Shown piece by piece: positions 364-17,910 of a stretch of 19,932 nucleotides of DNA. Made by a program: the position numbers and the translations under genes. The first letter of the stretch is position 1. Each line of letters starts with the position of its first letter. Under the pieces are notes generated by a model. It had not been told where the DNA came from. It was given only the letters and a program-made list of their open reading frames with translations, and did no database searches. Where the stretch lies: the IMG/VR virus record IMGVR_UViG_3300028591_000113, positions 110,087-130,018 of that record; one strand, 5' to 3'. Source of the DNA: a virus (Duplodnaviria > Heunggongvirae > Uroviricota > Caudoviricetes).

Positions 364-2583
364 ATGAGTTTATTAGATGAAAGAACGTCTCAAAACTTTC
401 TCATCTATGCTAACAGTGTTATTAAATCTCGTGCTATTCCAAGTGTTGAAGATAACTTAAAGCCAATTCATCGTAGAATCTTATGGACATTATATGAAGA
501 TAAGGTTTATGATGATGCAAAAACAAAGAAGTGCGCTACCGAAGCAGGACGTGTTTTAGCATACTCTCCACACGGTGAAGCGTCAGTTTATAGTGCGTTA
601 GTTAGATTAGCGCAGTGGTGGAAACTTCGTTATCCACTTGTTTATATTCAAGGTAACGCTGGTAACCTATTAGGCGACAGTGCAGCTGCATCACGTTATA
701 CTGAGTGTAAATTATCACCACTTGGTATGATGATGTTGGAAGATATTAACAAAGATTGCGTTGATTTTAAACCAAACTATGATAACACTACTGAAGAACC
801 AGTAACTTTACCATCAAAGTTCCCATTTTTATTATGCGGAAATAATAGTGGTATTGCTGTTGGTATGGGTAGTGATATAGTTTCTCACAACTTTACAGAA
901 GTAAGTAAAGCTATTGAATACTATATGCTTCATAAAGATTGCACAACAGCAGACTTGATGAAATTTATTCAAGGTCCAGACTTCCCTACTGGTGGCATTA
1001 TTCTTAATGGTGAGGATTTACCAGCCATTTATGAAAGAGGCACTGGTAGTGTTAAAGTTGCGGCGCATTATGATATAACTAAAAAAGGTAAAGAAACTCT
1101 CATTATCTTCCATGATGTTCCTTATGGTGTGGAAATTGATGATGGTATCAAAAAACCTCTAAAGAAATTAGTTTTAGACGAAGGTTATGATGTGTTTAAG
1201 GATATTGTAGTTGAAAAGGCGGGTCCTAGAAACTACGACATCACTGTTACATTAGATAAAAATGCGAAAGTAGATGAATGTTTGAAGATTTTATTCAGTA
1301 AAACTAAACTTCAATCTACAATTAAAATTAACAATAACTTTATTGTTAATGGTGAACCAAGAGTTCTCAGCCTTAAAGGCATGATCGCCGCATGGGTTGA
1401 TTACAGAAGTAATTGTATCAAGAGAATTGCTCAAAACGATTATAATAAAACTAATCATAAACTCACAGTAGTTCTTGGTTTACAAAAATGTATGAGTGAT
1501 ATTGATAAACTTGTATCACTTATTCGTGAGTCGTCTAACAGAGCTGCGGCAAAAAGCGCTATTATGAAGGAATTTTCTCTTAATGACGAACAAGCCGAAG
1601 CGGTGTTAGATATGAAATTAAGTCGTTTAAGTCGCTTGGATTTAGCAGAACTAGATAAAGATGAAAGAGATTTAACTGATAAACTCGCTTTATTAAAATC
1701 TACTATTGAAGATGAAAACATGCGTTACGGCATTATCAAGAGTGATTTAGAAGAAATTAAAAAAGTTATTGGTCCTGATAATAGATTAACAGAAATTTAT
1801 TATGCACGACCAATCGAAACAATAGATAAACCTGTAATTAAAGAAGAATTTAAGATTTATCCAAATGGTTGGCGCTTAAATAACGTCGCAGGTGTTGAAG
1901 TTATTGATAGTGATTTAATAGATGTAGTTTATGCTTATGGTATTGGCGATATCTATGGATATACTGCCGATGGTACTATTTCTCCTCTTGGTCATGATAT
2001 TGACAACTTTATTGGAGCATCTGTACTTAATACAGGAAAAACTAAAATGGTAGCGGTTACTAAAAATGGCAACATCAAAGTATCATTGCTATCTGATTAT
2101 AAATTAAGCCGCAAAGGTGAAAAAGTCTTAAAGTTAAAAGAAGATGATGAGTTATTATATGCGGGTTTCTGCGATGATAATGATAATATTATCTTGTTTG
2201 ACGGTAACAATAAAATATTAAAGTTAGCAATTAAAGACTTACCTGTTGCGTCAAAATTAACAGTTGGCGTTAAATCTGGCTTTGCGCCATGTAGCGCCGC
2301 AATGGTTGTAACTGATAGTGATTTATTACTCTTAGTTACAAAAGATTTAAAAGGTAAATACACTCCAGTTAAAGACTTCTCATTAGATAGTCGAGGCAAT
2401 AAAGGTCAGACTATTGGAGATGACACTATTTGTGTCCGTCGTATCGAGAGTGCGCGTGAAAATATTTATCTTATTCCAAAACAAGGTAAACCATTTACTC
2501 TTGCAAGAAATAAACTAAGTATTAAGAGCCGTACTGCGACAGGCGCCGCACTTAGCACAAGAAACATTGTAAGGATAATCTAG
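364..2583 (+). CDS. Type IIA DNA topoisomerase subunit A (GyrA/ParC family), 739 aa
   Basis: Motifs LKPIHRRIL, YSPHGEASVY, active-site AASRYTE, GPDFPTGG, EQAEAVLDMKLSRL, plus a C-terminal beta-pinwheel-like region (VAVTKNGNIK, LLVTKDLKGK). There is no canonical GyrA box, so GyrA and ParC cannot be distinguished. Confidence 0.95.
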   Translation: MSLLDERTSQNFLIYANSVIKSRAIPSVEDNLKPIHRRILWTLYEDKVYDDAKTKKCATEAGRVLAYSPHGEASVYSALVRLAQWWKLRYPLVYIQGNAGNLLGDSAAASRYTECKLSPLGMMMLEDINKDCVDFKPNYDNTTEEPVTLPSKFPFLLCGNNSGIAVGMGSDIVSHNFTEVSKAIEYYMLHKDCTTADLMKFIQGPDFPTGGIILNGEDLPAIYERGTGSVKVAAHYDITKKGKETLIIFHDVPYGVEIDDGIKKPLKKLVLDEGYDVFKDIVVEKAGPRNYDITVTLDKNAKVDECLKILFSKTKLQSTIKINNNFIVNGEPRVLSLKGMIAAWVDYRSNCIKRIAQNDYNKTNHKLTVVLGLQKCMSDIDKLVSLIRESSNRAAAKSAIMKEFSLNDEQAEAVLDMKLSRLSRLDLAELDKDERDLTDKLALLKSTIEDENMRYGIIKSDLEEIKKVIGPDNRLTEIYYARPIETIDKPVIKEEFKIYPNGWRLNNVAGVEVIDSDLIDVVYAYGIGDIYGYTADGTISPLGHDIDNFIGASVLNTGKTKMVAVTKNGNIKVSLLSDYKLSRKGEKVLKLKEDDELLYAGFCDDNDNIILFDGNNKILKLAIKDLPVASKLTVGVKSGFAPCSAAMVVTDSDLLLLVTKDLKGKYTPVKDFSLDSRGNKGQTIGDDTICVRRIESARENIYLIPKQGKPFTLARNKLSIKSRTATGAALSTRNIVRII

Positions 2584-2597
2584 TCAGTCTAGATTAT
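2575..2597. repeat. 9-bp inverted repeat (ATAATCTAG-tcagt-CTAGATTAT) over the topoisomerase stop codon; possible terminator or operator
   Basis: Perfect arms at 2575-2583 and 2589-2597, immediately upstream of a -35 box. Confidence 0.45.
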
Positions 2598-2599
2598 TC

Positions 2600-2628
2600 T
2601 TGCTTATGTGGTGTAACTGCAGTATATT
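2600..2628 (+). promoter_or_regulatory. sigma70/sigmaA-type promoter TTGCTT-N17-TATATT
   Basis: -35 at 2600-2605, 17-nt spacer, -10 at 2623-2628, in the intergenic gap ahead of the wHTH-ssb-sak genes. Confidence 0.65.
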
Positions 2629-2688
2629 ATATATGTAATGTTAGCCACAAACATTATTTATTACTTAACATCAATAAGGAGATATTTA

Positions 2689-2955
2689 ATGGATAAAATC
2701 GTTTTAACAGACAATGCTAAAGCAGTCCTTGAATTTATGCAAGCTAATGATAGAGTGTTAGTTGGTAAAGACATGATTGAAATGACAGGTATCAAAGGTA
2801 TCTATCCAGTTCTTAATTCTTTAATTAAAAAGGAATTAGTTGAACAAGCCGAACCAGTTATGAGAGACTTTACAAATAACAAGGGCGAAACAAAACCAAA
2901 AGAATATAAAACCTACAGATTAACAGAATTAGGCAGAAATTATTACGAAGATTAA
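2689..2955 (+). CDS. Winged helix-turn-helix DNA-binding protein, 88 aa
   Basis: AAGGAG RBS at about 2676-2681 favours ATG 2689 over 2638. It has a VLNSLIKKELV recognition helix and a YRLTELG wing signature typical of wHTH folds. Confidence 0.65.
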   Translation: MDKIVLTDNAKAVLEFMQANDRVLVGKDMIEMTGIKGIYPVLNSLIKKELVEQAEPVMRDFTNNKGETKPKEYKTYRLTELGRNYYED

Positions 2956-3026
2956 TTAGTTGTTAATGTGGCAACAAATGATTAATAAAAACAAAAACAA
3001 ATAGGAGTTACAAAAAACACAAATTT

Positions 3027-3908
3027 ATGGCAGATTTTTTAAGAACAAACAACGTAAAAATCGTCGGTCATTTAATTAGTGCCGACATGAAAACTGGTGC
3101 TCGTAAAGATACAGGTGCTGGTTACATTTCCGGTAATGCGGTCGTTCAATCCGTTATCGGTGGTGAAAAGAAAGAATTTGAAATTTCTTTCTATGCAAAT
3201 GAACAAACTCAAGACAAGAAAGTCAGCAAACTTTATACATCTTATTCTAAGATGAATGAATTAGTTGGCAAGAAAGTCGAAATCACAGGCGAACTTAGAG
3301 AAAATCGTTATTACAGCAATAACGCTAAACAATTAGTTTCCGCTCAACAAATCTCAGGTCGTTTCGTTCGTGGCGTTTCTGAAGCAACAGATGATGTCGC
3401 AACATTTGAATTAGGCGGCTTCGTCGTCTCAGAACTTACAGAACGTAAGAATAAAAAAGATGAAATCTATCGTTATGACTTACAATTAGGTCAAGCTAAC
3501 TATGCTGGTAATGCAATGTCTATCTTCACAGTTAGCGCTCGTCCATCAGACATTGACATCATCAAAGGTTTACAAAGCATGTATCGCGCAGGCGACACAG
3601 TTGTTGTTAATGGTATGTTAGACTGGGTCGTTGAAGTTGTCACAAAAGAAAGTGATAACGTTGGTTTCGGTTCTGGCGCCGTCCATTCTTACACAAATAG
3701 AATGAGAAGCTTCTGGATCAGCGGTGGTTCTAAAGTCGTTGAAAAAGAAGAAGACGGTAAATACACTCAAGGTTTAATCCGTGACTTACTTAGTGCTTAT
3801 AAAGCCAAAGACGTCGAATTAATGGACAGTGCTAAGAAAAATAGTGATGGTGATAAAGAAATTGAAGAAAAACCTCCAGTCACCAGTCGTCAAACAAGCT
3901 TAATTTAA
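3027..3908 (+). CDS. ssb: Single-stranded DNA-binding protein (probable tandem OB folds), 293 aa
   Basis: N-terminal NNVKIVGHL and KKVEITGELRENRY, second OB-like unit (GDTVVVNGML), charged tail, and position next to sak and the helicase. Confidence 0.7.
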   Translation: MADFLRTNNVKIVGHLISADMKTGARKDTGAGYISGNAVVQSVIGGEKKEFEISFYANEQTQDKKVSKLYTSYSKMNELVGKKVEITGELRENRYYSNNAKQLVSAQQISGRFVRGVSEATDDVATFELGGFVVSELTERKNKKDEIYRYDLQLGQANYAGNAMSIFTVSARPSDIDIIKGLQSMYRAGDTVVVNGMLDWVVEVVTKESDNVGFGSGAVHSYTNRMRSFWISGGSKVVEKEEDGKYTQGLIRDLLSAYKAKDVELMDSAKKNSDGDKEIEEKPPVTSRQTSLI

Positions 3909-3924
3909 TAAAACTTTAATAAAT

Positions 3925-3949
3925 AAGGGCGGTGTAACAACCGCCCTTT
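3925..3949 (+). terminator. GC-rich hairpin AAGGGCGGT-gtaaca-ACCGCCCTT(T) between ssb and sak
   Basis: Perfect 9-bp stem with only a short U-tract, directly followed by the AGGAG RBS of the next gene. Confidence 0.55.
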
Positions 3950-3960
3950 AGGAGAACCCA

Positions 3961-4698
3961 ATGGAAAAAGAAAATACATTTGAAAAATTATATAACATTA
4001 ACTTAGCAGACAAAACAAAAGAAAAAATTGGTTTAAAATATTTAAGTTGGGCTTATGCTTGGGCAGAATTAAAGAAACTTTATCCTGACGCTGAAAGAAT
4101 TGTTTATAAAAGAAAAGTTACCACAAAGTCCACAAAGACTATTCCAGTCGATGGCGGTGGTACAGAAGTTATTGAAACAACATATGAAAACGAAATCCCA
4201 TACTTTACAGATGGTAAAACTTGCACAGTTAAGGTTGGTGTTAAAATTAATGGCGTTGAATATGTTGAAGAACTTCCAGTTATGAATAATAAGAATGCCT
4301 CAATCCGCGCAGAAAGTGTAACTTCAACAGACATCAATAGAGCAATTCAAAGATGTTTCGTTAAAGCATGCGCTCTTCACGGTTTAGGTTTATATATTTA
4401 TGCTGGTGAAGATTTACCTGAAGTTGATAAAGTCACTATTGACTATGAAGCATTAAAAGATGATAAGACAGAAGAAATTACTTCTGAACAATTTGAATTA
4501 ATCCGTAAGGAAGTTATTCAAAAAATTCAATCTTCTAAAGATGATTTTGATTCGACATCAAGTGAAGAACTCACAAAATATATTCTTGCATTGTTCAATG
4601 GTAAGAGAATTTCTTTATTAGAATATCCTGTTGACTCAGAAAACCTTCAAAAACTTCATCACTTCTTAATCAAACTTTATTCTCTCATTAAGAAATAA
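3961..4698 (+). CDS. Sak/Rad52-like single-strand annealing protein (DUF1071-type), 245 aa
   Basis: Motifs LKYLSWAYAW, LPVMNNKN and DINRAIQRCFVKACALHGLGLYIYAGEDLP are characteristic of this phage annealase family. Confidence 0.88.
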   Translation: MEKENTFEKLYNINLADKTKEKIGLKYLSWAYAWAELKKLYPDAERIVYKRKVTTKSTKTIPVDGGGTEVIETTYENEIPYFTDGKTCTVKVGVKINGVEYVEELPVMNNKNASIRAESVTSTDINRAIQRCFVKACALHGLGLYIYAGEDLPEVDKVTIDYEALKDDKTEEITSEQFELIRKEVIQKIQSSKDDFDSTSSEELTKYILALFNGKRISLLEYPVDSENLQKLHHFLIKLYSLIKK

Positions 4699-5102
4699 TG
4701 GCAGAATATAGCAGAAGACAGTTAGAAGAATTAATATGTGAATTAGTGGGAGTAACTCAAATTACTCCCCTAATCAATAAACATATTAGTGAACTAGCGT
4801 TGATTTATAAGATGACGTGGAAAGAAATTGCGCGTTGTCTTACTTATTATGTAGAAGTGGCGCGAGGAACATTGAGGGTTGAATATGGAATTAAAACTCC
4901 ATGTACTTCGGTAAGAGAGAAGGCAGATAAGTATTTTAAACAGTTGGAGCTTGACCAACGCAAACAACAAGGCGAAGCCGCCAAAGTTGTAGAGTATCAA
5001 GAAAATAATATTATATTCAATATCAAATCATTACAAAATAAAAAAAGACAACCAAAACAATATGACATTAACGAGATAGACGTTAATAAAGGAGACCAGT
5101 AA
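4698..5102 (+). CDS. Hypothetical helical protein, 134 aa (possible helicase loader, by position only)
   Basis: TAATG-coupled to sak and ends 1 nt before the helicase. No diagnostic motif. Confidence 0.7.
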   Translation: MAEYSRRQLEELICELVGVTQITPLINKHISELALIYKMTWKEIARCLTYYVEVARGTLRVEYGIKTPCTSVREKADKYFKQLELDQRKQQGEAAKVVEYQENNIIFNIKSLQNKKRQPKQYDINEIDVNKGDQ

Positions 5103-5103
5103 A

Positions 5104-6708
5104 ATGGCATCTGTAATTAGTAAAGATTTATTCGATACTAATGCGTCTACGTATGTATTAAGTTACTTAATGCACGATCCGTTGATTTTGCAAAATGATA
5201 GATTCACATTTTGTAAAGATGATTTTTATAAACCATTACAACAAATGGTGTTTTATGCGATATTTAATATGGCTCAACTTGGAACGGAGAAAATATCTCC
5301 GCAAGATATTGACCTATATTTAAAACAATATGACGCGCAATACGAATTTTATAAAAGAGAAAAAGGTTATGAGTTCGTAATGCAATGTTATCAGATTGCA
5401 GAGTCTGAAGACGCAAAGTTATTTGAATTTTATTACAATAGATTAAAAAAGTTCTCTTTTTTAAGAGATTTAGAGGCGATTGGTTATGATACCAAGGAGT
5501 TTTATGATACTCAAGCAAATGCCTTAAATAAAGACTTAGAAGATGAACGACTCAACAAAACATCTTTAGATGCTATTGGCAACAGAATTAGGGCGCACCT
5601 AGTTGAAATTGAAAATAGACATATCGGTAAAGATGATAGCACATCTCAAACCGCCGCAAAAGGTTTACGTCATTTAGTTGCGGAATTAAAAGAAAGTCCA
5701 GAAGTTGGTTTACCACTTGATGGAGAAATTATTAATTATGCGGCGAGAGGTGCCAGATTAGGAAAATTATATACATATAGCGCACCATCTGGTCAAGGTA
5801 AAACTAGATATATGGTTGGTAATGCTTGTGCAATTAGTTTTCCTTATATAGACAAGGATAGCGGTAAAATTATTTATCGTGGAACCTTGGAACAAGATGA
5901 TTACCAAAAAATAGTATATATTGCAACTGAACAAAAGGCCGATGAAATTCAGACCTTGATTTTAGCATACGTAAGTGGTGTTAATGAAAGAAATATTCTT
6001 CTTGGAAGTTATACGCCAGAAGAAGAAGATAGAATTAATAAAGCACTTGATATTATTGAAAAATATCAAGACAACTTTATGATTGAGTATATGTCTGACC
6101 CAAGTATCGCGCAAGTCAAGACAGTTATGGCAAGATATATTATTCAACATAATATACAATATTTATTCTATGATTACATTTTTAGTAGTCCAGGATTATT
6201 GAGTGAGTTTAGAGACGTCGAGGTTCGTGAAGACGTCGCTTTAATGATGCTTTCAAATAGTATCAAGGAAACTGCAAGTAATTATAATGTTTTTATTCAA
6301 AGCGCGACTCAATTAAATGAAAACTGGAGTAAAAAGGAAATAGGACCAAGAGACCAGAACTGTTTAAGAGGTTCTAAAGCGATCGCGGATAAAATTGATA
6401 TTGGTTTAATTGGTGTTCGTTTGGGTGAAGCAGAGATGAAACAAATTGATGCTGTTTTAAAAGAATTGCGCGCTCAAAACCCAATTAAATATAAAAGAGA
6501 CCCTAATATCGTAATTGATATTTATAAGAATAGACGTGGCGAATTAAATAGTGTTAAGGTGTTTAGATATTTTGATTATGCCACTTGTCATGCTGAAGAT
6601 TTGTTTATAACAGATTGCAGTTATAAAGCAGTTCAGGAAATTGGTCAATTAAAATATGACCAAAGACCATTTGACTACTTAGACTTAAAAACTAGAGGTA
6701 TCTTATAA
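5104..6708 (+). CDS. dnaB: Replicative DnaB-family (SF4) helicase, 534 aa
   Basis: Walker A APSGQGKT, IATEQ, Walker B LFYDYI, SATQLN, GSKAIADKID, KNRRG. Confidence 0.92.
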   Translation: MASVISKDLFDTNASTYVLSYLMHDPLILQNDRFTFCKDDFYKPLQQMVFYAIFNMAQLGTEKISPQDIDLYLKQYDAQYEFYKREKGYEFVMQCYQIAESEDAKLFEFYYNRLKKFSFLRDLEAIGYDTKEFYDTQANALNKDLEDERLNKTSLDAIGNRIRAHLVEIENRHIGKDDSTSQTAAKGLRHLVAELKESPEVGLPLDGEIINYAARGARLGKLYTYSAPSGQGKTRYMVGNACAISFPYIDKDSGKIIYRGTLEQDDYQKIVYIATEQKADEIQTLILAYVSGVNERNILLGSYTPEEEDRINKALDIIEKYQDNFMIEYMSDPSIAQVKTVMARYIIQHNIQYLFYDYIFSSPGLLSEFRDVEVREDVALMMLSNSIKETASNYNVFIQSATQLNENWSKKEIGPRDQNCLRGSKAIADKIDIGLIGVRLGEAEMKQIDAVLKELRAQNPIKYKRDPNIVIDIYKNRRGELNSVKVFRYFDYATCHAEDLFITDCSYKAVQEIGQLKYDQRPFDYLDLKTRGIL

Positions 6709-7781
6709 TGGATATAAGAGAACTTAGAGAACAATTAAGCGACGAGTCGATAAAAGAGATATTGGCGCAATTCAATGTTGAGCCAGTAGATGAAAATGAG
6801 GAAAGAATAATCTTTCCTACTTGTTGCCATAATTTAGAAGGCGGTAGTCCAAAGTTATTTTACTATAAAAACACCAAGTTATTCCATTGTTATACTGAAT
6901 GCGCGGCTTCATTCGACATCTTCACATTATTGCAAAAGATGTATGCGTTGCGCGGACAAGAGATAACATTAAAACAAGCGATTGAAATCTGTAATTTAGA
7001 TACAAGCACACTAAAGCCAGAAGATCGCGCATATAATTGTCTTGATGATATTAAATATATGCAGGAGTTAAATAACTTTTATATTCCTGATGTAGATAAT
7101 TTAGATTTTAAGAAATACGATAGAGGTATTTTGAAGAATTATCCATTCAATTATATGGGATTAATGCCTTGGATACAAGAAGGCATTGGAATTGAAGCGC
7201 TTCAACGTTTCTCAATAGGTTATGATAATTACCATCAAGCCATTATTATTCCTAACTTTGATTATAATGGAGACCTAATTGGTGTTCGTGCGCGTTTCTT
7301 TAAAGAAGAAGATGTTAAAAAAGGTAAATATAGACCTTTATATGTAAATGGCCAGTTATATAATCACCCAACTGGTCGAACATTCTATGGTATTTATGAA
7401 AACCATAAGAATATTGAAAGAAAGAAAACTGCAGTTATCTTTGAGGGTGAAAAGTCAGTATTGTTATTTGAAACAATTTATGGTGCAAAAGATAACATAT
7501 CATTAGCAACATTGGGACAAAACATTACTAAAGACCATATTCAGTATTTATTAAAGATGAAAGTTACTCATGTAATTTTGGCTTATGATACTGATTATGA
7601 AGATTACGACCAATTAAAAGAAGTTGATAAAAAATATAGAGAAAAGGCTAAAATTTTTAGTCCTTACTTCAATGTAAGTTACTTACTTGATGATGACTTT
7701 ATACTTCCGTATAAGTCTAGTCCTATTGACGGCGGCCGCGAAACATTCGAACATTTATTACAGAATAGGAGAATTGTATAA
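6708..7781 (+). CDS. dnaG: DnaG-type DNA primase, 357 aa
   Basis: N-terminal zinc-binding region (TCCH...FHCYTEC), TOPRIM VIFEGEKS and LAYDTD; TAATG-coupled to the helicase. Confidence 0.88.
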   Translation: MDIRELREQLSDESIKEILAQFNVEPVDENEERIIFPTCCHNLEGGSPKLFYYKNTKLFHCYTECAASFDIFTLLQKMYALRGQEITLKQAIEICNLDTSTLKPEDRAYNCLDDIKYMQELNNFYIPDVDNLDFKKYDRGILKNYPFNYMGLMPWIQEGIGIEALQRFSIGYDNYHQAIIIPNFDYNGDLIGVRARFFKEEDVKKGKYRPLYVNGQLYNHPTGRTFYGIYENHKNIERKKTAVIFEGEKSVLLFETIYGAKDNISLATLGQNITKDHIQYLLKMKVTHVILAYDTDYEDYDQLKEVDKKYREKAKIFSPYFNVSYLLDDDFILPYKSSPIDGGRETFEHLLQNRRIV

Positions 7782-7957
7782 TGAATAAGTTTTTAGATAT
7801 TTTAGGAAATATATTTATAGTTATTTTATGTATATTATCTCTACCATTCCTGATCGTGTTCGCGGCTATCGTGGCGGTTATTTATGCCTTATTTGTGATA
7901 GTTTGCCTCCCTTACTGGGTAGTGCGCTACCTAATCTTGGAGGATGATTATGAATAG
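7781..7957 (+). CDS. Small membrane protein, 58 aa (missing from the ORF track)
   Basis: MNKFLDILGNIFIVILCILSLPFLIVFAAIVAVIYALFVIVCLPYWVVRYLILEDDYE-TAG. It has a TAATG overlap with dnaG, overlaps the recJ start and contains about 40 continuous hydrophobic residues. Confidence 0.7.
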   Translation: MNKFLDILGNIFIVILCILSLPFLIVFAAIVAVIYALFVIVCLPYWVVRYLILEDDYE

Positions 7958-9767
7958 AGTAGAATTAAAATTAAATTCAATAAAAATGTATGACAGTAGA
8001 ACCGAGAATTTCTCATATGGTCTAGGATTCTTGGCGCAATACTTAATGAACTTAGGTATTGATAAAAAAGACGTGATGTGTTTTATCGACAAGCCACGTG
8101 ATACAGATCAAGATAATCCCGAACTATTAGATAATATCAAAGAAGCCGCAGATATGTTAGTTACTCAATTAGATTGTGGCGCCAAAGTATTTATCCAAGT
8201 AGATAGTGATACTGATGGTTATACATCTTCTGCTGTCTTAATTAATTATATTACACGTAGATGGCCAGGAGCGCGCATTGTTCATAGGTTACACAATGGC
8301 AAAGAGCATGGTATTATTTTAGAAACTGTGCCAACAGATTGCTCTGTTGTTATTATTCCTGATGCGGGTTCAAACCAGTTCTATGAACAAAATTATTTAG
8401 CAGACTTGGGCAAAACAGTAATTGTGCTTGACCACCACGAAGTGGATGAAATACAAGATACCAAAGCAATTATTGTTAACAACCAATTAAGTCCAAACTT
8501 CCCAAATAAAAATTTAAGTGGTGTTGGCGTTGTTTATATGTTTATTCAATATATTGATACACATTACTTCCCAACAGAAACTCCAATTTTTAGAGATTAT
8601 TTAGATTTAACTGCGGTTGGTATTATTGCTGATGCTATGAACATGACAGCGCTTGGCAATAATTATATTGCTTATTATGGTTTGAATAATATTAAAAGTA
8701 AGTTCTTACATGAGTTAGCAATCAAACAAAGTCGTGGTATTTCAGACCCTGACCACTTAACAAAGATCGATGTAGCCTTTTATATCGCGCCTGTAATTAA
8801 CGGTGTTATCAGATATGGTGCTCCAGAAGATAAAGAAATGGTATTTAAAGCGCTTACAACATGGCAAGATGACACAGATTATGAAAGCACTTGGCGTGGT
8901 GTGGTAAGACATGAAAACCTTTATCAATATGCGGTGCGCTTAGCCGTTAACGCAAAAGGTCGACAAGATAGTGCGAAAAAGAAATCCTTTGAATGGCTTT
9001 GCGAAAAGGTCAATGAAGAAGGGTTAGATAAAGATAATGTTATTATCGTAACATTAAATGAAAAAGAAAGTGCAAAAGTAAGTCCGAATATTACAGGTCT
9101 TATTGCAATGGAATTAGTCAACCATTACAATAAACCAGCACTTGTATTAAGAAAAACTACCTTTGAAGAAGGAGATAATGAAATCGAAGTTTACGGCGGA
9201 AGCGGTAGAAATGGTAATTTCTATGGTTTACCAGACCTTAAAAGTTTCTTAAAAGAAGCGGGCGCTTTTTATTGCGAAGGTCACGCCAATGCATTCGGTG
9301 CTTTCTTAAAACCAGAGGAAGTTCAACCAATTAGAGATTATGCGAATAAGAAATTAAATGTAAACTCTTTTGAAGAAGTTTATCAAGTAGATTACTGGTT
9401 TGATGGTAAACATCCAGTAAATTACGAATTACTCGAAGTATTCGCTAAACATAAAGCATTGTGGGGTAACTCAATCCCACAACCTAAATTCGCTTTTTCC
9501 GGGCATTATAAGAAGAGTGACATCTTTGTCATGGGTAAAGAGAAAAACTCTTTAAAAATTAATGGTGGGGAAATTAGTTTTGTATCTTTTAATGCTCGTA
9601 AAACAATAGATGAATTAACAGAGAATCCAGAAGGAACATACTTAATTGTTGGTAGACCGCAATTAAATGAATATATGGGTAATGTATCTATTCAAGTTAT
9701 GATAGATGATATTGCTATTAATCCTTCTACACCAACCTCTGCTATATCCTTATTGGATTTAATTTAG
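7950..9767 (+). CDS. recJ: RecJ-like ssDNA 5'-3' exonuclease (DHH family), about 605 aa
   Basis: Motifs VDSDTDG, IPDAG, LDHH, NLSGVGV, GSGR, GHANAFG. The GGAGG RBS at about 7939-7943 favours ATG 7950 over 7944. Confidence 0.9.
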   Translation: MNRVELKLNSIKMYDSRTENFSYGLGFLAQYLMNLGIDKKDVMCFIDKPRDTDQDNPELLDNIKEAADMLVTQLDCGAKVFIQVDSDTDGYTSSAVLINYITRRWPGARIVHRLHNGKEHGIILETVPTDCSVVIIPDAGSNQFYEQNYLADLGKTVIVLDHHEVDEIQDTKAIIVNNQLSPNFPNKNLSGVGVVYMFIQYIDTHYFPTETPIFRDYLDLTAVGIIADAMNMTALGNNYIAYYGLNNIKSKFLHELAIKQSRGISDPDHLTKIDVAFYIAPVINGVIRYGAPEDKEMVFKALTTWQDDTDYESTWRGVVRHENLYQYAVRLAVNAKGRQDSAKKKSFEWLCEKVNEEGLDKDNVIIVTLNEKESAKVSPNITGLIAMELVNHYNKPALVLRKTTFEEGDNEIEVYGGSGRNGNFYGLPDLKSFLKEAGAFYCEGHANAFGAFLKPEEVQPIRDYANKKLNVNSFEEVYQVDYWFDGKHPVNYELLEVFAKHKALWGNSIPQPKFAFSGHYKKSDIFVMGKEKNSLKINGGEISFVSFNARKTIDELTENPEGTYLIVGRPQLNEYMGNVSIQVMIDDIAINPSTPTSAISLLDLI

Positions 9768-9776: not shown

Positions 9777-10004
9777 ATGACTATTTCACAATTTTTAGAA
9801 GAACACGGCTTACATTGCCGCACCCCAGAAGAAGAAGATTTTATGTTGAAAGCATTAGACAAAATGTATGTTGAATGGTTGGCGCCAGAGGCTGCTATCC
9901 GTTTAATATTAGATTATTTGGAAAATGCTGATGAAATCTATAGCGACACTATGGCAGAACGAGAAGCAAATGAAAAAGTTCTGGCAGATAGCGAAGAAAA
10001 TTAG
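9777..10004 (+). CDS. Hypothetical acidic protein, 75 aa
   Basis: AGGAG RBS upstream, TAG stop, fills the recJ-dnaE gap. Confidence 0.7.
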   Translation: MTISQFLEEHGLHCRTPEEEDFMLKALDKMYVEWLAPEAAIRLILDYLENADEIYSDTMAEREANEKVLADSEEN

Positions 10005-10013
10005 TATATTATA
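10003..10013 (+). promoter_or_regulatory. Putative -10 element upstream of dnaE (AGTATATTATA, identical to 2621-2631)
   Basis: 11-nt identity with the -10 region of the 2600 promoter. The -35 match is weak (CTGGCA at 9981-9986). Confidence 0.35.
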
Positions 10014-10030
10014 AATAAGGAATAATAGAT

Positions 10031-13000
10031 ATGAGAGATTATATAGGATTGCACAACCACACAGAATATTCAAACGTCAAAGTTATTGACAGTATTAATA
10101 GATTTAACCGCATGGTAGACTATGCGTGGGATTTAGGTTTGTCTGGTTTAGCATTAACAGACCATGACTGTTTAAGTGGAACTTTACAAGCTCTCGATAT
10201 CTATAAAGCAAAACTTAAAAAAGAATGGACTGCGCTTCATCCTGACGAAGAATTGCCAGGATGGGCGGAGATGTCCAAAGAACTAGATTTCAAAGTTATT
10301 TTAGGTAATGAGATTTATCTTAGTGAAGAAGGCTTAAATGAGTCGCAAATGTCTAGTGCTGCTCCGGCTCATTTTTGGCATTTAATTTTATTAGCAAAAG
10401 ATGAAATAGGATTTAGACAACTTAAAGAATTAAGTAGTCGTGCCTGGAGACGCGCATGGTTTAGAGGTATTTTAAGAACACCAACTTATCCAAGCGATTT
10501 AGTAGAAATTATTAGCGCTAATCCAGGTCATATAGTTTGTTCCACAGCATGTCTTGGTAGTTACACCGCATGGTGTTGGAGAAATTATACTATTGCTTGT
10601 AAAGATGACGGCGGTTTGGACTTTATTCCAGACGGCGGACATGACAAACAATGGTATTTAGATAAATTAGATAATCACCTATCTGCGATGCAGAATCTTT
10701 TTGGTGTAGGTAATTTCTTTATTGAATTACAACCAAACGAAAAAGGTAGTGAACAAAATGAATATAATAAGTTTATGTTGGATAGATATTTTCCAGAATA
10801 TCCTTTCATCTTCACTACTGATGCTCACTATTTGAAGGCAGAAGAAAGAAATATTCACAAAGCATTCTTAAATAGTAAAAGCTCAAAAGATAGAGAAGTA
10901 GATGATTTCTATAAATATACATATATAATGAGTCAGGCAGAAGTTCGTAGTTTAATGGATTATGTGTCTGATGAAGTTTTTGAATCAATGGTAGATTGCA
11001 CAAGACATATTAAAGATAGTGTGCAATTCTTTGAAATTGAAAAGCCAAAAGTTATCGCAAAAGTTGAATATGAACACTGGGATGAATATGCCGATGATTT
11101 AGATATGTTCTTAGATATTTCGCAAGACGATTATCCAGTGTTTTATGAATATTTACATACAGAAGATAGAGCAGACAATTATTTAGCGCGTTTAATTGCA
11201 CATGGTTATGCTTTGAAGCAACAACCAAGTTGGGACCAATCTGTGTATTTCGCGCGCATTGAAGAAGAATTAGATATTATTAAAAAGGTTGGCGATGCAA
11301 TTCATCAATCTATGTCTGACTACTTCATTACAATGAGTAAAATGGTTGACTTAATGTGGCAAGCAAACTCTTTAGTTGGACCATCTCGTGGTTCTGCTGG
11401 CGCCATGTTAATTAACTATTTAATTGATATTACACAAATGAACCCAGTTGAGATGGATTTGCCATTTGTTTGGAGATTTATGCACCCATCAAGACCAGAC
11501 TATCCTGATATTGACGTTGACTCTGAAAGCGATAAGCGTGTCGCTGTTTTTAACACAATTAGAGATTACTTCAGAGGATTAGGCGGTGACGTTATTAACG
11601 TTTGTACATTTGGTACAGAAGGAACAAAGAGTGCTATTAAAACTGCGGGTCGTGGCTTAAAAATTGATGATGACGTAATTAGTTATATTACATCAATGAT
11701 TCCAAACGAAAGAGGCTTTGACTGGTCATTACATGACTGTTATTATGGTAATGATGATGATAGAAAACCTATTAGTAACTTTGTCGCGCAAATGAATGAG
11801 TATCCTCAATTATGGGAATTAGCGCAAAGTATTGAAGGTTTAGTTACTCGTTTAGGTGTTCACGCATCAGGTGTTGTTTGTGTTAATGGTGATTTTAACG
11901 AATATAATAGTGTTATGAAAACTTCTAAGGAACAGTTGGTTTCAGCATATGACTTACACACATTAGAAAGATGTGGTGTATTGAAATACGACTTACTTAC
12001 TGTTTCCGCGCTTGACCGTATTCACCAATGTATGAACTATATGTTGGAAGATGGAGTTTTAGAGTGGCAAGGAAGTTTAAAAGAAACTTATAATAAATAT
12101 TTGAATCCAGCAATCTTAGACTATACCAGTCCTGAGATGTGGAAAATGGCAGAAGAAGGACAAATTAGTAGTTTGTTCCAATTCGATACAAACCAAGGAC
12201 AAGTGGCGATGAGACAAATTGGTCCGCAATCATTAAAAGAATTAGCCATCGCGAACTCGGTTATGAGATTAATGAGTGATGGTGAGTTGCCACTAGAAAA
12301 GTATGCACGTTTCAAAAAAGTGCCATCTTTATGGTATGATGAAATGCGCGCTTACGGTTTAAATGAAAATGAAATTAAAGTATTAGAAAAATACTTAAAA
12401 GAAAAGAGCGGTATTGCAGATAGTCAAGAAGTTGTTATGCAGATATCAATGGATCCACAAATTAGCGGATTCAGTATGCAAGAAGCAAACAAATTAAGAA
12501 AGACTATCGCGAAGAAACAATTTAGAGAAATTGAAGCAGTTAAACAATTATTCTTTGATAAAGGTAAAGAAGTAGGTGCATCATATAACTTATTAAGTTA
12601 TATTTGGTATGTTCAAATTAGTATGCAATTAGGTTATTCATTCTCAACAATTCATACTACTGGTTACAGTTTAATTGCTATTCAAGAAATGAACTTGGCG
12701 TATCATTATCCAATTATTTATTGGAACTGCGCATGTTTAAGTGTTGATAGTAGCGCTATAAATAGTTTAGACTTTGATAACTTAATCGAAGAAGATATTA
12801 TCTCTGTCGAAACGGGTGAAAAAGTAGCCAAAAATAAAATGGATTATGCTAAACTCGCATCAGCATTGGATAAGTTTAGTGGAATTTGCGATATTGAACT
12901 TCCAGACATAAATAAGTCTAAACTTAGTTTTATGCCAGATGTTAAGAAGAACAGTATTCTTTATGGATTAAAAGGTATTGCTAAAGTCACTGAACCTGTT

Positions 13001-14077
13001 ATTGCGGAAATTATGATGCACCGTCCATTTGAATCATTAAAAGACTTTTTAAATAAAGTAACAAAGAGAGTTGTTACAAAAGATAAAGTTATTAACTTAA
13101 TTAAATGCGGCGCGTTTAATGAAATTGAAGGCAAGACAACAGAAGAAGTATTAAAAGATTATATTGCTTCTGTTTGCGATTTAAAGAAGAATTTAACAAT
13201 GCAAAATGCAAATATGTTAATTGATTTGTATTTATTACCGCAAGAGTTAAGTTATAACATGGATGTCTATAAATTAACAAAAGAATTGAGAAGACATCGT
13301 GATGAAAATAAGATTTGGTATTGCGCTGATAGATTAGATATTCCAATGAATAAGTTAGATAGTTGGAAACAAATATTTAAGGATAGCGGCATTGAGGGCA
13401 AAGAAATCGTATTAAATGATGAGCCTCGTAAAGTTATTGATAGCGCAAAGTGGGATTTATTCTATGAAAGACAAATGGGTCCTATTAGAAAATATATTAC
13501 TGATAATAAGACTGAATTATTAGATAAATTGAATACTCGTTTATATAATGATGAATGGCAAAAATATTGCCAAGGCGATATCTTACAATGGGAATTAGAT
13601 AGTATGAACTTCTTCTTTAGCGGTCACCCATTAAAGAAGGTTATTAAACAACTTCCAATAGTCATTGATAAAGTTGAGGATGTCGTTGAAGGTGTTCAAG
13701 ATGGTTTCTTCTATATTAAAGGCAAAGAAATTCCAAGAATGAAACTTTATACATTAGCGGGTACAGTTATTGATAAAGATACAACAAAAGGTTTAGTTAC
13801 TTTACAATGTCCAAGTGGCGTCGTGACATTGAAGATTTATAAAGACTTATTTGCAACATTGGCGGCAACAGTTGGTGATGTTAGTATTGAAGGTGAAAAA
13901 GAAATCGAACAAGAAGGTTTCTTTGAAAAGGGGACACATTTAATGGTAACAGGTGTTCAACGTGGTGCAACGTTTGTTCCAAAGGTTTATAAGTCAACTG
14001 GTCGTAAAGCAATTTTAAAGATTGTTTTAGATGAAGACGGTGACTTTGTTGAATTCGAGGAGAAACAAGATGCGTAA
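10031..14077 (+). CDS. dnaE: DNA polymerase III alpha subunit (DnaE, family C), 1348 aa
   Basis: PHP domain (LHNHTEYS, LTDHD, GNEIY, TDAHY), SRGSAG, catalytic PDIDVD, GVHASGV, KYDLL, FQFD, GYSFSTIH and a C-terminal OB fold. No intein splice motifs were noticed. Confidence 0.96.
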   Translation: MRDYIGLHNHTEYSNVKVIDSINRFNRMVDYAWDLGLSGLALTDHDCLSGTLQALDIYKAKLKKEWTALHPDEELPGWAEMSKELDFKVILGNEIYLSEEGLNESQMSSAAPAHFWHLILLAKDEIGFRQLKELSSRAWRRAWFRGILRTPTYPSDLVEIISANPGHIVCSTACLGSYTAWCWRNYTIACKDDGGLDFIPDGGHDKQWYLDKLDNHLSAMQNLFGVGNFFIELQPNEKGSEQNEYNKFMLDRYFPEYPFIFTTDAHYLKAEERNIHKAFLNSKSSKDREVDDFYKYTYIMSQAEVRSLMDYVSDEVFESMVDCTRHIKDSVQFFEIEKPKVIAKVEYEHWDEYADDLDMFLDISQDDYPVFYEYLHTEDRADNYLARLIAHGYALKQQPSWDQSVYFARIEEELDIIKKVGDAIHQSMSDYFITMSKMVDLMWQANSLVGPSRGSAGAMLINYLIDITQMNPVEMDLPFVWRFMHPSRPDYPDIDVDSESDKRVAVFNTIRDYFRGLGGDVINVCTFGTEGTKSAIKTAGRGLKIDDDVISYITSMIPNERGFDWSLHDCYYGNDDDRKPISNFVAQMNEYPQLWELAQSIEGLVTRLGVHASGVVCVNGDFNEYNSVMKTSKEQLVSAYDLHTLERCGVLKYDLLTVSALDRIHQCMNYMLEDGVLEWQGSLKETYNKYLNPAILDYTSPEMWKMAEEGQISSLFQFDTNQGQVAMRQIGPQSLKELAIANSVMRLMSDGELPLEKYARFKKVPSLWYDEMRAYGLNENEIKVLEKYLKEKSGIADSQEVVMQISMDPQISGFSMQEANKLRKTIAKKQFREIEAVKQLFFDKGKEVGASYNLLSYIWYVQISMQLGYSFSTIHTTGYSLIAIQEMNLAYHYPIIYWNCACLSVDSSAINSLDFDNLIEEDIISVETGEKVAKNKMDYAKLASALDKFSGICDIELPDINKSKLSFMPDVKKNSILYGLKGIAKVTEPVIAEIMMHRPFESLKDFLNKVTKRVVTKDKVINLIKCGAFNEIEGKTTEEVLKDYIASVCDLKKNLTMQNANMLIDLYLLPQELSYNMDVYKLTKELRRHRDENKIWYCADRLDIPMNKLDSWKQIFKDSGIEGKEIVLNDEPRKVIDSAKWDLFYERQMGPIRKYITDNKTELLDKLNTRLYNDEWQKYCQGDILQWELDSMNFFFSGHPLKKVIKQLPIVIDKVEDVVEGVQDGFFYIKGKEIPRMKLYTLAGTVIDKDTTKGLVTLQCPSGVVTLKIYKDLFATLAATVGDVSIEGEKEIEQEGFFEKGTHLMVTGVQRGATFVPKVYKSTGRKAILKIVLDEDGDFVEFEEKQDA

Positions 14078-14252
14078 ATGGAAAGATGTTCAAGAAGAAA
14101 AGAATAAACTTGAACGTAAACTAGAAATGATTACGATTAGAAATGCATATCAAGGTTTAATTACAGTTTCTAAATATTGTAATTCATTTGAAGATTTTAT
14201 AAAAAATTTAGAAGTTTTCATTGAACGACTTAATGAAGAGATTGATAAGTAA
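14070..14252 (+). CDS. Hypothetical coiled-coil protein, 60 aa
   Basis: GAGGAG RBS at about 14057-14062 supports ATG 14070, overlapping the dnaE end; TAA at 14250-14252. Confidence 0.65.
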   Translation: MRKWKDVQEEKNKLERKLEMITIRNAYQGLITVSKYCNSFEDFIKNLEVFIERLNEEIDK

Positions 14253-15379
14253 TGAAAGTTACAATTTGAGACCTTGATTATTACTTCTCTGATGAAAAAG
14301 GCGCCACAGTTAATGTAGATGTTCAAAAAATATCTAGTTATCATAAACAGAAGGGTGATAGTGTTAATTTCGTAACATCTGAAAGAGATATATATCGTCC
14401 TTATGATATATATTATATCATTAAAGAAAATAAAAAAACACCTAATCCGCCCATGGAGTTCTTCATGAACCCCAAGGTGCGCTGGTGAGGTGAGGCATAT
14501 AGTATGAAACAAAATTGGAAGATGTCTGACGCGATGCTAGCCTGTCGTCCTGATTATCTTCTATATCCTGAACGATTAACTCGTAATGCCCGCGCAGAGC
14601 AAATTAGATTATTAGGGAACAATAATAAACTATTGCCTATAATCCAGGATTGGGGCAATACTTTAAAAGATAAAAACTATATCGTAACAGATAAGAAATT
14701 ATGGTATGCAGATGAAGAAACAGTTATTGCGGCTTTATGCAGAATACAGAGTGTGCCTAATATCTGTTTTGAATCTCCAATTCCAATTTTAACAATAAAA
14801 AAGAACCCCAATATTTTACAGGAGTTTTGAAAATTAAAGTTCTCTGCGCGTTCACAATTCGAGTTTGTGAGAGTCTATCCAGAAGATATGACAGTAGTCT
14901 TTGAATTTATTGATGAATTTAGAAGATACTTTCCAACTTGCGCGATTCCTCACATTAAACTTGTTTATTCTCGCATACCTTGGCAAACACAAAGTGAAGC
15001 GCAATTAGCGATGAATAATTTAAGAGATATAATTAAAATCGCCAAAATGAATAATATCTATTTAGATATTATTGGACCAAAGAAAAGAAATGAAACACCA
15101 TTTTTCTTTTTACCAGAATTAATGGAAGATTGGTGCAAATTAAACTTTAAAATGGCGTGACTTGAGTATCTAAGTATACGCTTTAAAGTTGATAAGAATT
15201 ATATGTCAGGCTCTACTGACTGAAATAAACCGAATAAATGACATCCGTTATTTAGAGATGCAATTAGACAAACATATGAAGATACTGATTTCTTACTTAG
15301 AAAATGGGGAAATGATAAAGTATCTGAACTAGAAATACCATGAAAATTATGAAAGGAAACGTTTAAGTTAGGTCTATAA
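14252..15379 (+). CDS. 375-aa protein with 8 in-frame TGA (Trp) codons; resembles a phage radical-SAM-like family but lacks the CxxxCxxC motif
   Basis: One frame runs from ATG 14252 (TAATG overlap) to TAA 15377-15379, interrupted only by TGA at 14267, 14486, 14828, 15158, 15221, 15239, 15341 and 15350. It joins track ORFs 14504-14830 and 14867-15160. Motifs include MKVTIWDLD, VQKISSYHKQKGDSV and CRPDYLLYP. Confidence 0.8.
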
Positions 15380-15380
15380 T

Positions 15381-15986
15381 ATGAAATATAAACGTATATG
15401 TGTATTAGATACTGAAACAACTTCAGTATACTGGAATAGCGCTGCGCCGGTTCAAATTGCAGCAGTAATTTGTGATAATAAAGGAAACATAATTGATAGT
15501 TTTAATGAGCGAATTAAAACAACTCATACGATCGATCCTGAGGCTAGTAAAGTTCATGGCATTTATGCAAAAGATTTGGTTAATTGCAGAAGAGAAACAG
15601 AAGTATTAATGGATTTCTGCGCCTGAATGGCAAACCAAGAAGTAGATTGTGTTTTAACTTACAATGGTGAGGCATTCGATAGACCAATGCTTAATTGTCG
15701 TTGTGAAGCGCTAAAAATACCATTTGATTATTTTAATAAAGATAAGTTCCCTGGAATTGATGGATACTATGATTGTATCTATTTAGCTAAGAAACAAAAC
15801 TTATTTGGATTAAAAGATAAGCTAGGTAGAAAATGGAAACTTACATTAGTTGCAGAAGCACTTGGGTTTAGTAGCGAAGGCGCGCATGATGCGCTTGCTG
15901 ATGTAATGATGCTTAAAAACATTTTCTTTAAAGTTGACCCAATTATTCATCCAGAACATTGGGAAGGCTCAGAAAGTTTATTCTAA
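15381..15986 (+). CDS. DEDDh 3'-5' exonuclease (DnaQ/epsilon-like), 201 aa, one in-frame TGA
   Basis: ExoI DTETT lies in track ORF 15381-15626; ExoII YNGEAFD and ExoIII HDALAD lie in ORF 15627-15986. The two are in frame and separated only by TGA 15624-15626. Confidence 0.9.
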
Positions 15987-15990
15987 ACAA

Positions 15991-16017
15991 AAAAAGGACT
16001 AGTAATTAGTCCTTTTT
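15991..16017. terminator. Bidirectional intrinsic terminator between convergent genes
   Basis: AAAAAGGACTA-gtaat-TAGTCCTTTTT, with A/T tracts on both sides. It overlaps the holin stop codon. Confidence 0.8.
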
Positions 16018-16356
16018 ATTATTCATGCCATTGTACCATTCGATACAAGAATCAATATAAGCACCGAGTTGGTCAACAAATGGATCTATATTAAGACCTG
16101 CAGCTTTTGCACTAGCCTTAACTGAATTAATAACTGCTTCTTTTTTCGCCACACCCTTAAGAGTTGAATGTTCAAATTCTTTCATAGCAGCATCAGCCAT
16201 AGTCATAAGTATATCCCACCTTTCTTTGGCTGTCTTTTCTTTCACGGCTTTAATTCAACCTTTAATTGCAAAGAATGTTGCAACACCTGTGCCGATTAAG
16301 CCAAATAAACCACTAAGTAAAGCAATTAATCCATTAACTGTGGTAATCCAATCCAT
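16006..16356 (-). CDS. Holin-like protein (LL-H-type architecture), 116 aa, one in-frame TGA
   Basis: AGGAG RBS, then MDWITTVNGLIALLSGLFGLIGTGVATFFAIKG[TGA 16255-16257]IKAVKEK... One N-terminal TM helix followed by an amphipathic tail (GVAKKEAVINSV...AGLNID...IDSCIEWYNGMN). Confidence 0.65.
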
Positions 16357-16367
16357 ATCAATCTCCT

Positions 16368-16874
16368 TTATTTATTTGTGGGTTCTGAGGGTAATTTCAT
16401 TACTTGTTCATGTAAATTATCCACAACACCGTTCTTACCTAAATTATGATAAGACCAATAGAGTTCATCAAATTCTGTCTTTTCTAAATCACTTGCCCAG
16501 CCGCGATCAACATAAATTTTGCCGTCTTGACGTAAACTACGACGAACGTCTTTTTGCATAGCTTTCTTCATGGAAAGAAGTTCTTCATCAATGTCGTCCA
16601 GTTCTTTGGTAACATTCTGATCCATGTTATCAATTTTCTTTTCAACGTCTTGTTTTAATCCTTTGATTTGTTCATGAACGTCTTTTTTAATTGCGTCGTC
16701 ACGGTCTTTGTTTTCTTGTTTACGCGTCTGTTCACGCAATTTTTCTAATTCAGCTTGGTCATCTTCTTTCTTCTTTTGTCTTTTATTTCACCAAGTGGTG
16801 ATTATTAGACCAATTATTGTTGTGAAAGCAACGTTGATGCCGCCAACGATAAGACCTATAATTACACCTTCCAT
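16368..16874 (-). CDS. Membrane-anchored coiled-coil protein of the type found beside phage holins, 168 aa, one in-frame TGA
   Basis: GGAGG RBS, then MEGVIIGLIVGGINVAFTTIIGLIITTW[TGA 16788-16790]NKRQKKK..., a coiled coil, and C-terminal ELYWSYHNLGKNGVVDNLHEQVMKLP. That last motif is recalled from phage lysis-region proteins. Confidence 0.7.
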
Positions 16875-16933
16875 TATATAGTGTTACCTCCACGACTTCA
16901 TCAGTAATCGTTACTGTCCTACTCTATATTAGT

Positions 16934-16962
16934 AATATGAAAGGAATTATAGAGAAAAGCAA
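16934..16962 (-). promoter_or_regulatory. Putative sigma70-type promoter for the holin pair, TTGCTT-N17-CATATT
   Basis: Same -35 hexamer and spacer as the 2600 promoter; the -10 differs by one base. Confidence 0.4.
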
Positions 16963-17015
16963 ATTCGTTTTTATCTACCAACAATAGTATAATAACTATG
17001 TATAGGAGAAATAAC

Positions 17016-17210
17016 ATGGAAAAACAAGATATTACAAACTTCAGAGATTCTCTTGCTAATATGTCTATTGAAGAACTTGAGAATATGATGAAAGACTTAA
17101 AGAATCAAATCAATAAGATGATTTTAGATAGTGATTTAATCATTAAGGTTGCCATCGTTGACCAAAAAATTAAAGATAAGAAAGGTGAATCTGATGGCGA
17201 AGTTAAGTAA
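17016..17210 (+). CDS. Hypothetical helical protein, 64 aa
   Basis: AGGAG RBS at 17004-17008 favours ATG 17016; TATAAT at 16988-16993 upstream; overlaps the ruvC start. Confidence 0.7.
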   Translation: MEKQDITNFRDSLANMSIEELENMMKDLKNQINKMILDSDLIIKVAIVDQKIKDKKGESDGEVK

Positions 17211-17910
17211 AGAACAAATTCAAACAGAAGTAGAAGCAAAAGGTTATAAATTATTGAGCGCAGAAGGCTATTCAAATATGAATAGTATTATTGTTGTTCA
17301 ATGTGACCATGGACATACTATTGAAGTTAGTATGGCTGATTTTCGTCGTGCCAGTTTTGAATGTCCTTGTTGTAATACTGGTAAAGTAGAAAATCCTATA
17401 AAAGTGCCTGAAAAAACAGGATATCGTGTTATTGCGTTTGACCAGGCAACAGAAAAGTTTGGTTTAAGTATTTGAGACGATGGTAAATTAGTATTTTTTA
17501 ATTTATACGCATTTACAGGCGCACTCAATGTTAGATTAGCAAAGATTAAAAAGTTACTTGAAGAAGTAATTATTCCTGAATGAAAACCAGATTTTATTGT
17601 ATGTGAAGATATACAATATCAATATGGCGCGGTTTTAACCTATAAAGTATTAGCAATGTTGCTTGGTATTATTGAAGTAACCTGCACCGAAAAAGGCATT
17701 CCTTATGAAGTAGTTAGTCCAAATGTTTGAAGAAAATATGCGGGAACTTGCGGAAAAACACGTCAAGAAGAAAAGATGCTTAGTGTTGCTACTGTTAGAC
17801 AGAAGTATCAAGTAAATGTAAGTGATGATGTTGCGGAAGCAATACTGATAGGCAGCTATGGTGCAAAAGTTCATAAACGTCAATTAGAATTGGCATTTGG
17901 TAAAAAATAA
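17194..17910 (+). CDS. ruvC: RuvC-like Holliday junction resolvase with an N-terminal zinc-ribbon, 238 aa, three in-frame TGA
   Basis: TGA at 17473, 17581 and 17728; TAA at 17908-17910. RuvC-type motifs are IAFDQAT, VCEDIQ, VSPNV[W]RK and DDVAEAILIG. The N-terminus has QCDHGH...CPCC. Confidence 0.85.

Follow-up and report, generated by a model that had tools for sequence, protein, structure and literature searches.

The subject of this work is the palindrome GCGC in a stretch of 19,932 nucleotides (the window) that forms the final 19.9 kb, positions 110,087 to 130,018, of a 130,018-bp virus record (IMGVR_UViG_3300028591_000113; Caudoviricetes) rated complete by CheckV and belonging to a 130-kb rumen phage. 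The window, with a GC content of 33.8%, contains 74 copies of GCGC where about 16 are expected, alongside 5 GGCC, 4 CCGG and 36 CGCG, and the genome as a whole holds 388 GCGC sites. This excess is independent of the reading frame, extends over the whole genome, is young, and has been built up by directional change. The features of the window are as follows (coordinates in the window, strand, content).

332..17630, no strand: 74 GCGC sites, scattered in genes, in all three codon phases, five overlapping as GCGCGC
364..2583, plus: topoisomerase II / gyrase-A-like gene (PHROG 551; Pfam DNA_topoisoIV), TGA-free, 9 GCGC
3027..9767, plus: SPbeta-type replication module, from family matches and a gene order as in SPbeta yorF-yorK
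10031..14077, plus: DNA polymerase III alpha, YorL-like, 1348 amino acids, 17 GCGC
14252..15379, plus: open reading frame (ORF) of 375 amino acids, function unknown, 8 in-frame TGA, 6 GCGC
15381..15986, plus: 3'-5' exonuclease subunit, 1 TGA, 7 GCGC (11.6 per kb)
16006..16874, minus: holin-like two-gene cassette, 0 GCGC
17149..17910, plus: ORF with the last three GCGC of the window (17258, 17519, 17627), where codon shuffling expects 1.1
17946..19927, minus: late genes without GCGC (nucleotidyltransferase-like, unknown, collagen-repeat tail fibre)

The replication module comprises a YorF-like gene, a Sak-like annealing protein, a YorH-like gene, a DnaB helicase, a primase and a RecJ-like exonuclease, its genes carrying 2.7–5.6 GCGC per kb, and the polymerase is 37% identical to SPbeta YorL and stands at the matching place in the gene order. 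SPbeta resembles this phage in its yorF-yorL order, but differs from it in lacking a GCGC excess and in having a multispecific C5 methyltransferase, which is absent here. The 375-amino-acid ORF, which is placed between the standard-code polymerase and the exonuclease subunit, gave no Pfam or PHROG matches. Reading TGA as sense raised coding coverage from 0.76 to 0.88, and the genome carries 33 tRNA genes (genome positions 54383-67034) plus a tRNA(UCA) at 88929-89025; the TGA-bearing ORFs of the window lie at 14252-15379 (8 TGA), 15381-15986, 16006-16356, 16368-16874, 17946-18539 (6 TGA), 18505-18909 and 18911-19927. In all the features tested the phage fits a TGA-recoded "Agate" type with an SPbeta-like replication module. 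It is like the Agate phages (bioRxiv 10.1101/2021.08.26.457843) in having a genome of about 127–130 kb, an animal gut origin, a suppressor tRNA(UCA), and TGA readthrough in late and lysis genes and not in replication genes; it differs in its oligonucleotide excess, which is not described in that work. Megablast of the window against phage records returned no matches. One contig of a relative (L006:8601-14484) spans genome positions 127956-130018 and then 1037-6213, and as it crosses the record ends, the "linear" record is circularly permuted, with a late minus-strand block that is continuous over the junction and runs on from the end of the window into genome 1-30.8 kb.

The size of the GCGC excess was measured against several null models. 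Relative to base composition (order 0, r0), the observed/expected ratio was 4.56 in the window and 3.14 in the genome, and relative to dinucleotides (order 1, r1) it was 3.8 (z 12.5) and 2.27 (z 19.9), respectively. Genes were then called with TGA as sense (170 genes, 113.5 kb) and synonymous codons were shuffled within each gene. Genome-wide, 351 GCGC were observed against 184 ± 11 expected (1.91x, z 15.6), and in the called genes of the window 73 against 28.5 (2.6x, z 10), placing GCGC first of the 256 tetramers for over-representation. A preliminary description of this DNA had given the GCGC, GGCC and CCGG counts correctly (74, 5 and 4), with the listed positions accurate to within 1 base. 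A shuffle that preserves dicodons, as suggested in that description, is vacuous for 4-mers, because each of them lies in one codon pair and its count is fixed by construction; for such short words, moreover, codon-shuffle and trinucleotide-Markov nulls can disagree widely.

The signal does not follow the reading frame. Genome-wide, the sites fall in the three codon phases as 140, 145 and 66, each about twice the shuffle expectation, in line with the earlier statement that all phases are used. The choice of codon depends on whether a GCGC would result: the GCG share of alanine codons was 36% before C and 10–20% elsewhere (odds ratio 3.2, p 3e-20), the NGC share of serine and cysteine was 58% before GC against 26–34% elsewhere (odds ratio 3.5), glycine used GGC in 41% of GCGC-forming contexts against 19–26%, and arginine used CGC in 42% of cases after G against 18–22% after A or T. 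Odds ratios of 2.3–3.5 were thus obtained in four independent codon contexts, with the A-, T- and C-ending alternatives all lowered. The synonymous and codon-permutation shuffles (z about 15) rule out an explanation by codon usage or by the order of amino acids. These contexts, together with the behaviour of other palindromes described next, bear out the proposal that the signal acts at the DNA level and is not one of codon usage.

Nine other 4-bp palindromes (GATC, GTAC, AGCT, GGCC, CCGG, CTAG, TCGA, ACGT and CATG) were strongly avoided, at 0.30–0.66x, with ratios of 0.30 for GATC, 0.35 for GTAC, 0.40 for GGCC and 0.44 for AGCT. In the codon-preserving shuffle the depletion reached z values of -4.4 to -13.7 for GATC, GTAC, AGCT, GGCC, CCGG, TGCA and CATG. 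Such avoidance implies that the phage has met many 4-cutter restriction systems. Loss of restriction-type palindromes is what is expected of phages, and nine of them are indeed depleted here, but GCGC is gained, being enriched instead of avoided; the active gain of a restriction-type tetramer points to an opposing force. The hexamers CAATTG, AGATCT and GCAGCT were avoided too, and A6/T6 runs were found at 0.44–0.46x of the shuffle expectation.

GCGC was enriched over the shuffle in each block of the genome (1.3–3.1x) and to a similar degree in genes free of TGA (1.97), with 1–2 TGA (1.82) and with at least 3 TGA (1.89), ruling out an excess limited to TGA-free or early genes. Absolute density peaks in the replication block, at 4–5 sites per kb; codons there set a higher baseline, and the ratio itself was modestly raised there (2.1–2.95x in three sub-blocks; by summed rows, about 2.4x against 1.7x in the rest). 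The idea of a signal acting on the replication arm alone is therefore abandoned. As for the reported absence from late genes, there are indeed no sites in 16006-16874, where the shuffle expects 0.44, nor in 17946-19932 (0.32 expected for the genes at 17946-19927). As only 0.75 sites are expected in the five minus-strand genes at the end of the window, however, with a probability of 0.24 of finding none even at 1.9x, this zero is an uninformative small-sample effect, and the remaining late block (genome 1-30.8 kb) holds 60 GCGC against 32.3 expected (1.86x, z 5.8).

The sites have little structure beyond the tetramer. Flanking bases were near background, with only a weak T at -1 and A at +4, and all 16 NGCGCN hexamers were enriched (1.5–5.5x), which rules out a longer hidden motif. 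Gaps between sites fitted an exponential (Poisson) distribution with a coefficient of variation of 1.05, and no periodicity was detected in pair distances in the 130-kb genome, which is too short for the 10–90 kb periods of the cyanobacterial palindrome HIP1. The sole departure from random spacing was an excess of overlapping GCGCGC (17 copies), a kind of word (alternating G-C runs of at least 6 nucleotides, GC6) that one survey reports as generally suppressed in prokaryotes (PMC4060949).

The history of the excess was followed in metagenomic relatives (L-numbers), graded by their nucleotide identity to the studied phage (G000), with GCGC ratios over the codon shuffle as follows.

L020: 97% identity, ratio 3.2
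L006: about 85% identity, ratio 2.05
L015: 87% identity, ratio 1.5
L007 and L019: 72–80% identity, ratio 1.4–1.7
Most distant relatives: about 68% nucleotide and 61–67% amino-acid identity, ratio mostly 0.8–1.3, with L008 and L009 reaching 1.5–1.7

SPbeta, with a GC content of 34.9%, has 40 GCGC against 43.5 by shuffle (r0 0.54), so that a family trait at a given GC content is ruled out. The excess is young, having arisen in the common ancestor shared with relatives at about 85% identity or more. Individual sites were shared with L006 in 19 of 37 cases (51%, background 45%), with L020 in 15 of 19 (background 90%) and with L019 in only 5 of 46 (11%), far below the background of 39%. Gains and losses were reconstructed by parsimony in the polymerase gene with five outgroups: GCGC was gained 12 times and lost once and CGCG was gained 15 times and never lost, whereas the family-wide words were near balance (9 gains to 10 losses for GCGG, 7 to 6 for CGGC). 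The source words of GCGC include GTGC, GCAC, GCTC and GAGC, that is, both transitions and transversions. Two relatives come from human-gut bins named for bacteria, Parabacteroides goldsteinii (L004, CAVGUA010000110.1) and Gemmiger formicilis (L005, CAVDWX010000097.1); both were rejected as hosts on account of an unsuitable GC content, the 34% GC contig in each being probably a mis-binned phage.

Related lineages favour other palindromes. In L001, L010, L011, L013 and L014, which are about 62% identical to the phage in the amino-acid sequence of the polymerase, the hyper-abundant 7-bp quasi-palindrome TGCSGCA occurs 58 times in 85 kb of coding sequence where synonymous shuffling predicts 6.7, and its positions are conserved between those relatives (73–88%, against a background of 30–45%); G000 itself has 27 copies. 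In L009 (30% GC; L009:1295-11750) the SacII-type palindrome CCGCGG has 11 copies in 13.8 kb, while codon shuffling predicts 0.5 and composition about 0.2. No extended consensus was found around TGCSGCA or CCGCGG, and the L009 copies are scattered in genes without common flanks. The shorter word GCSGC (GCCGC/GCGGC) is 4–12x over composition in all family members, and GCWGC is not; in the studied phage the figure is 4.3x, and its sites were shared with L019 above background (8 of 14 against 32%). Other lineage-specific over-represented words, noted among L004, L005 and L008 and in L006 and L019, were non-palindromic and enriched on the coding strand, namely CAGATG/CATCTG and AACT(T) in L004 and L008 and AACTTC in L006 and L019 (23 against 5.5).

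The reading that we favour, tentatively and with less than even confidence, is a weak genome-wide fixation bias for the word GCGC at the DNA level, probably exerted through a sequence-specific DNA enzyme from outside the phage's own gene set. Under such a bias, synonymous and some non-synonymous choices would have drifted to GCGC wherever the protein permits, in any phase, gene class or region, and CGCG would be favoured as well, less strongly. The bias would be recent and would still be giving net gains; individual sites would turn over and would not be functional elements, density being what would persist. A candidate agent might be a host cytosine methyltransferase of the HhaI/HinP1I type acting through biased mismatch repair, which could be very-short-patch-like or could take the form of the methyl-directed ratchet proposed for HIP-type excesses (Elhai 2015, PMC4390886); another might be a small fitness gain from being methylated.

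Several observations lead in this direction. Because A, T and C alternatives have all been replaced, a simple polymerase error spectrum fails, and it must be the resulting word itself that is recognised, either through selection or through biased repair or conversion. Random spacing, lack of a consensus and conservation at background level argue against discrete functional sites and for an effect at the level of density. That the favoured restriction-type palindrome differs between sister lineages suggests a sequence-specific enzyme of changing specificity, as in restriction-modification. A cognate GCGC methyltransferase, which the preliminary description had proposed to look for, was not found in the phage in searches for PF00145, PF01555, PF02086 and PF05869 (C5, N4/N6, D12 and Dam), and since the phage has no such enzyme the host would be its likeliest source; an enzyme-linked drive, and its attribution to the host, are what we infer from these points.

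Other results weigh against this reading. The order-2 Markov model, based on trinucleotides, leaves ratios of only 1.33 in the window (z 2.7) and 1.16 in the genome (z 2.8). The neighbouring words CCGC/GCGG, GGCG, CGCG and GCSGC are also enriched, so what is favoured may be CpG between G/C flanks in a looser sense and not precisely this tetramer. Inside the clade rich in GCGC, the word is kept slightly better than other G/C-rich words (16 of 30 against 34.5%), which leaves room for selection on the sites themselves. As to the mechanism, GCGC also arises by transversion (from GCTC, for instance), GTGC/GCAC lack the depletion that very-short-patch repair classically leaves, Vsr (PF03852) was not found in the phage, nor PF00145 in three relatives, and the host agent is a putative one. 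GTGC/GCAC had ratios r0, r1 and r2 (orders 0 to 2) of 1.11, 0.94 and 1.01 and were not among the extreme words under shuffles.

The order-2 result itself admits a further comment. GCG/CGC are 1.6x enriched overall, but solely where G or C flanks them: GCGA stands at 1.15x and GCGT at 0.90x, while GCGG reaches 2.21x and GCGC 3.14x (GCGW 0.9–1.15x, GCGS 2.2–3.1x). As the trinucleotide excess is confined to these contexts, the order-2 model absorbs the signal rather than explaining it. The enrichment put forward in the preliminary description accordingly holds under the synonymous shuffle, with the trinucleotide model absorbing most of it; the explanation by GCG/CGC frequency that it had named as one possible refutation applies numerically, yet that frequency is itself raised only beside G or C.

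A comparison with a bacterial repair system is instructive for the drive that we favour. In Escherichia coli the Dcm/Vsr repair bias leaves CCWGG over-represented and CTWGG/CCWAG under-represented. The likeness lies in a neutral repair drive that lifts the target word of a methyltransferase genome-wide, with no function of the single sites and with a similar, modest several-fold effect; the differences are that the T-containing derivatives GTGC/GCAC are not depleted here, that gains occur by transversion, and that the phage has no Dcm or Vsr homologue. A phage-encoded very-short-patch drive was therefore rejected, there being neither PF03852 nor PF00145 and no depletion of GTGC/GCAC.

A wider form of the idea, possible though rather doubtful, is that Agate-like rumen and gut phages carry hyper-abundant, lineage-switching palindromes of the restriction type, maintained for or by a sequence-specific reader; phages would then have their own equivalent of the HIPs of cyanobacteria. 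The words would be GCGC/CGCG in the present phage and TGCSGCA (about 9x over shuffle, and conserved) and CCGCGG in the sister groups; the reader, which would write or preserve them, would change its specificity between close relatives, and the polymerase gene would catch the switch, with GCGG/CGGC lost while GCGC/CGCG are gained. Compared with palindromes of the AGTACT/CAGTACTG type, which are 6–8 bp long, GCGC has 4 bp and is not conserved by site, and it is TGCSGCA and CCGCGG of the sister lineages that come nearer to them.

Somewhat more doubtful is a selected mark like those of the HIP family, in which a phage or host protein would read GCGC and selection would keep its density high; the candidate readers would be a nucleoid or packaging protein, a nicking enzyme, a primase or a protective methyltransferase. 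The bias is directed at the target from all alternative bases, GCGC leads the other words by far, its net gains oppose the AT-rich background, it is retained within the clade slightly above other G/C-rich words, and the sister word TGCSGCA is conserved in position; furthermore, the nicks of phage T5 DNA lie at R/GCGCRGG (PMC3517423). On the other hand, four base pairs hold too little information to serve as a DNA-binding address, GCGC is conserved no better than average 4-mers, its spacing is random and non-periodic without a flanking consensus, and no candidate reader gene was identified. HIP1 (GCGATCGC) is 8 bp long, 15–300x enriched, conserved in position and quasi-periodic, its genomes possess cognate orphan methyltransferases, and related cyanobacteria use alternate palindromes (Xu, Lawrence & Durand 2018, PMC5861425). 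The phage resembles that system in that genes contain an excess of a restriction-type palindrome in all frames, which bends codon choice, in that the favoured word differs between related lineages, and in that a drive by methylation or repair is proposed. It differs in that GCGC has only 4 bp, is 3.1–4.6x over composition and 1.9–2.6x over shuffles, is Poisson-spaced, and shows no conservation beyond background, in a phage genome without a methyltransferase. The HIP1 analogy drawn in the preliminary description is thus fair for a possible origin, through the ratchet, and fails for the defining features compared, namely strength, spacing, conservation and methyltransferase.

It is unlikely, and less probable than a selected mark, that no specific agent is at work and that GCGC is only the most extreme word of a general oligonucleotide signature, made of CpG with G/C flanks plus a GCG/CGC excess, which would be inherited through context-dependent biases of mutation and repair in the replication environment. 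The low order-2 ratios (1.16–1.33) are what such a signature predicts, and it would account for the parallel excess of CCGC/GCGG (2.2x), GGCG/CGCC (1.9x), CGCG (1.7x), GCCG/CGGC (1.6x) and GCSGC, for the low WCGW words (0.57–0.8), and for the enrichment of GCG by 1.2–2.6x in all the relatives. However, codon shuffles put GCGC, at 1.91x, well above the other G/C-only words (1.0–1.56x), the change is confined to the clade, where it displaces a word favoured earlier, and several substitution types give gains, which a single context-dependent mutation bias hardly explains.

A role of GCGC as Chi-like protection against a host nuclease of the AddAB/RecBCD type, or as primase start sites, appears very improbable. 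The phage does replicate using its own recombination proteins, and in Bacillota the known Chi sites are short words that include GCG (AGCGG in Bacillus subtilis, GCGCGTG in Lactococcus lactis). GCGC, however, is a palindrome, its extensions on the coding strand show no orientation bias (TGCGC 133, GCGCA 135), there is no strand or replichore structure, and the known Chi words are unremarkable in the genome (GCGCGTG 5, CACGCGC 2, AGCGG 67, CCGCT 48). Least credible of all, and largely refuted, is the view that codon usage, amino-acid composition or a compensation for palindrome avoidance produces the excess as an artefact: composition predicts about 108 GCGC, codon structure alone does lift this to 184, and nine palindromes are avoided, but the synonymous and codon-order shuffles leave the excess in place, a Markov chain Monte Carlo (Metropolis) shuffle with ten palindromes held fixed gives only 191 ± 7 GCGC against the 351 observed, and SPbeta, of like GC content, has no excess.

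Full-text literature searches turned up no publication that describes a GCGC excess in phages. Robust and instructive in its evolution, the effect is yet modest in size and partly compositional. The graded relatives and the differing words of sister lineages constitute a natural experiment for separating drive from selection. If the phage were to encode a reader of the word, GCGC would represent a new kind of genome-wide DNA mark; if a host methyltransferase or repair system drives the change, uncultured phages would carry in their favoured word a readable barcode of the host or its defence repertoire.

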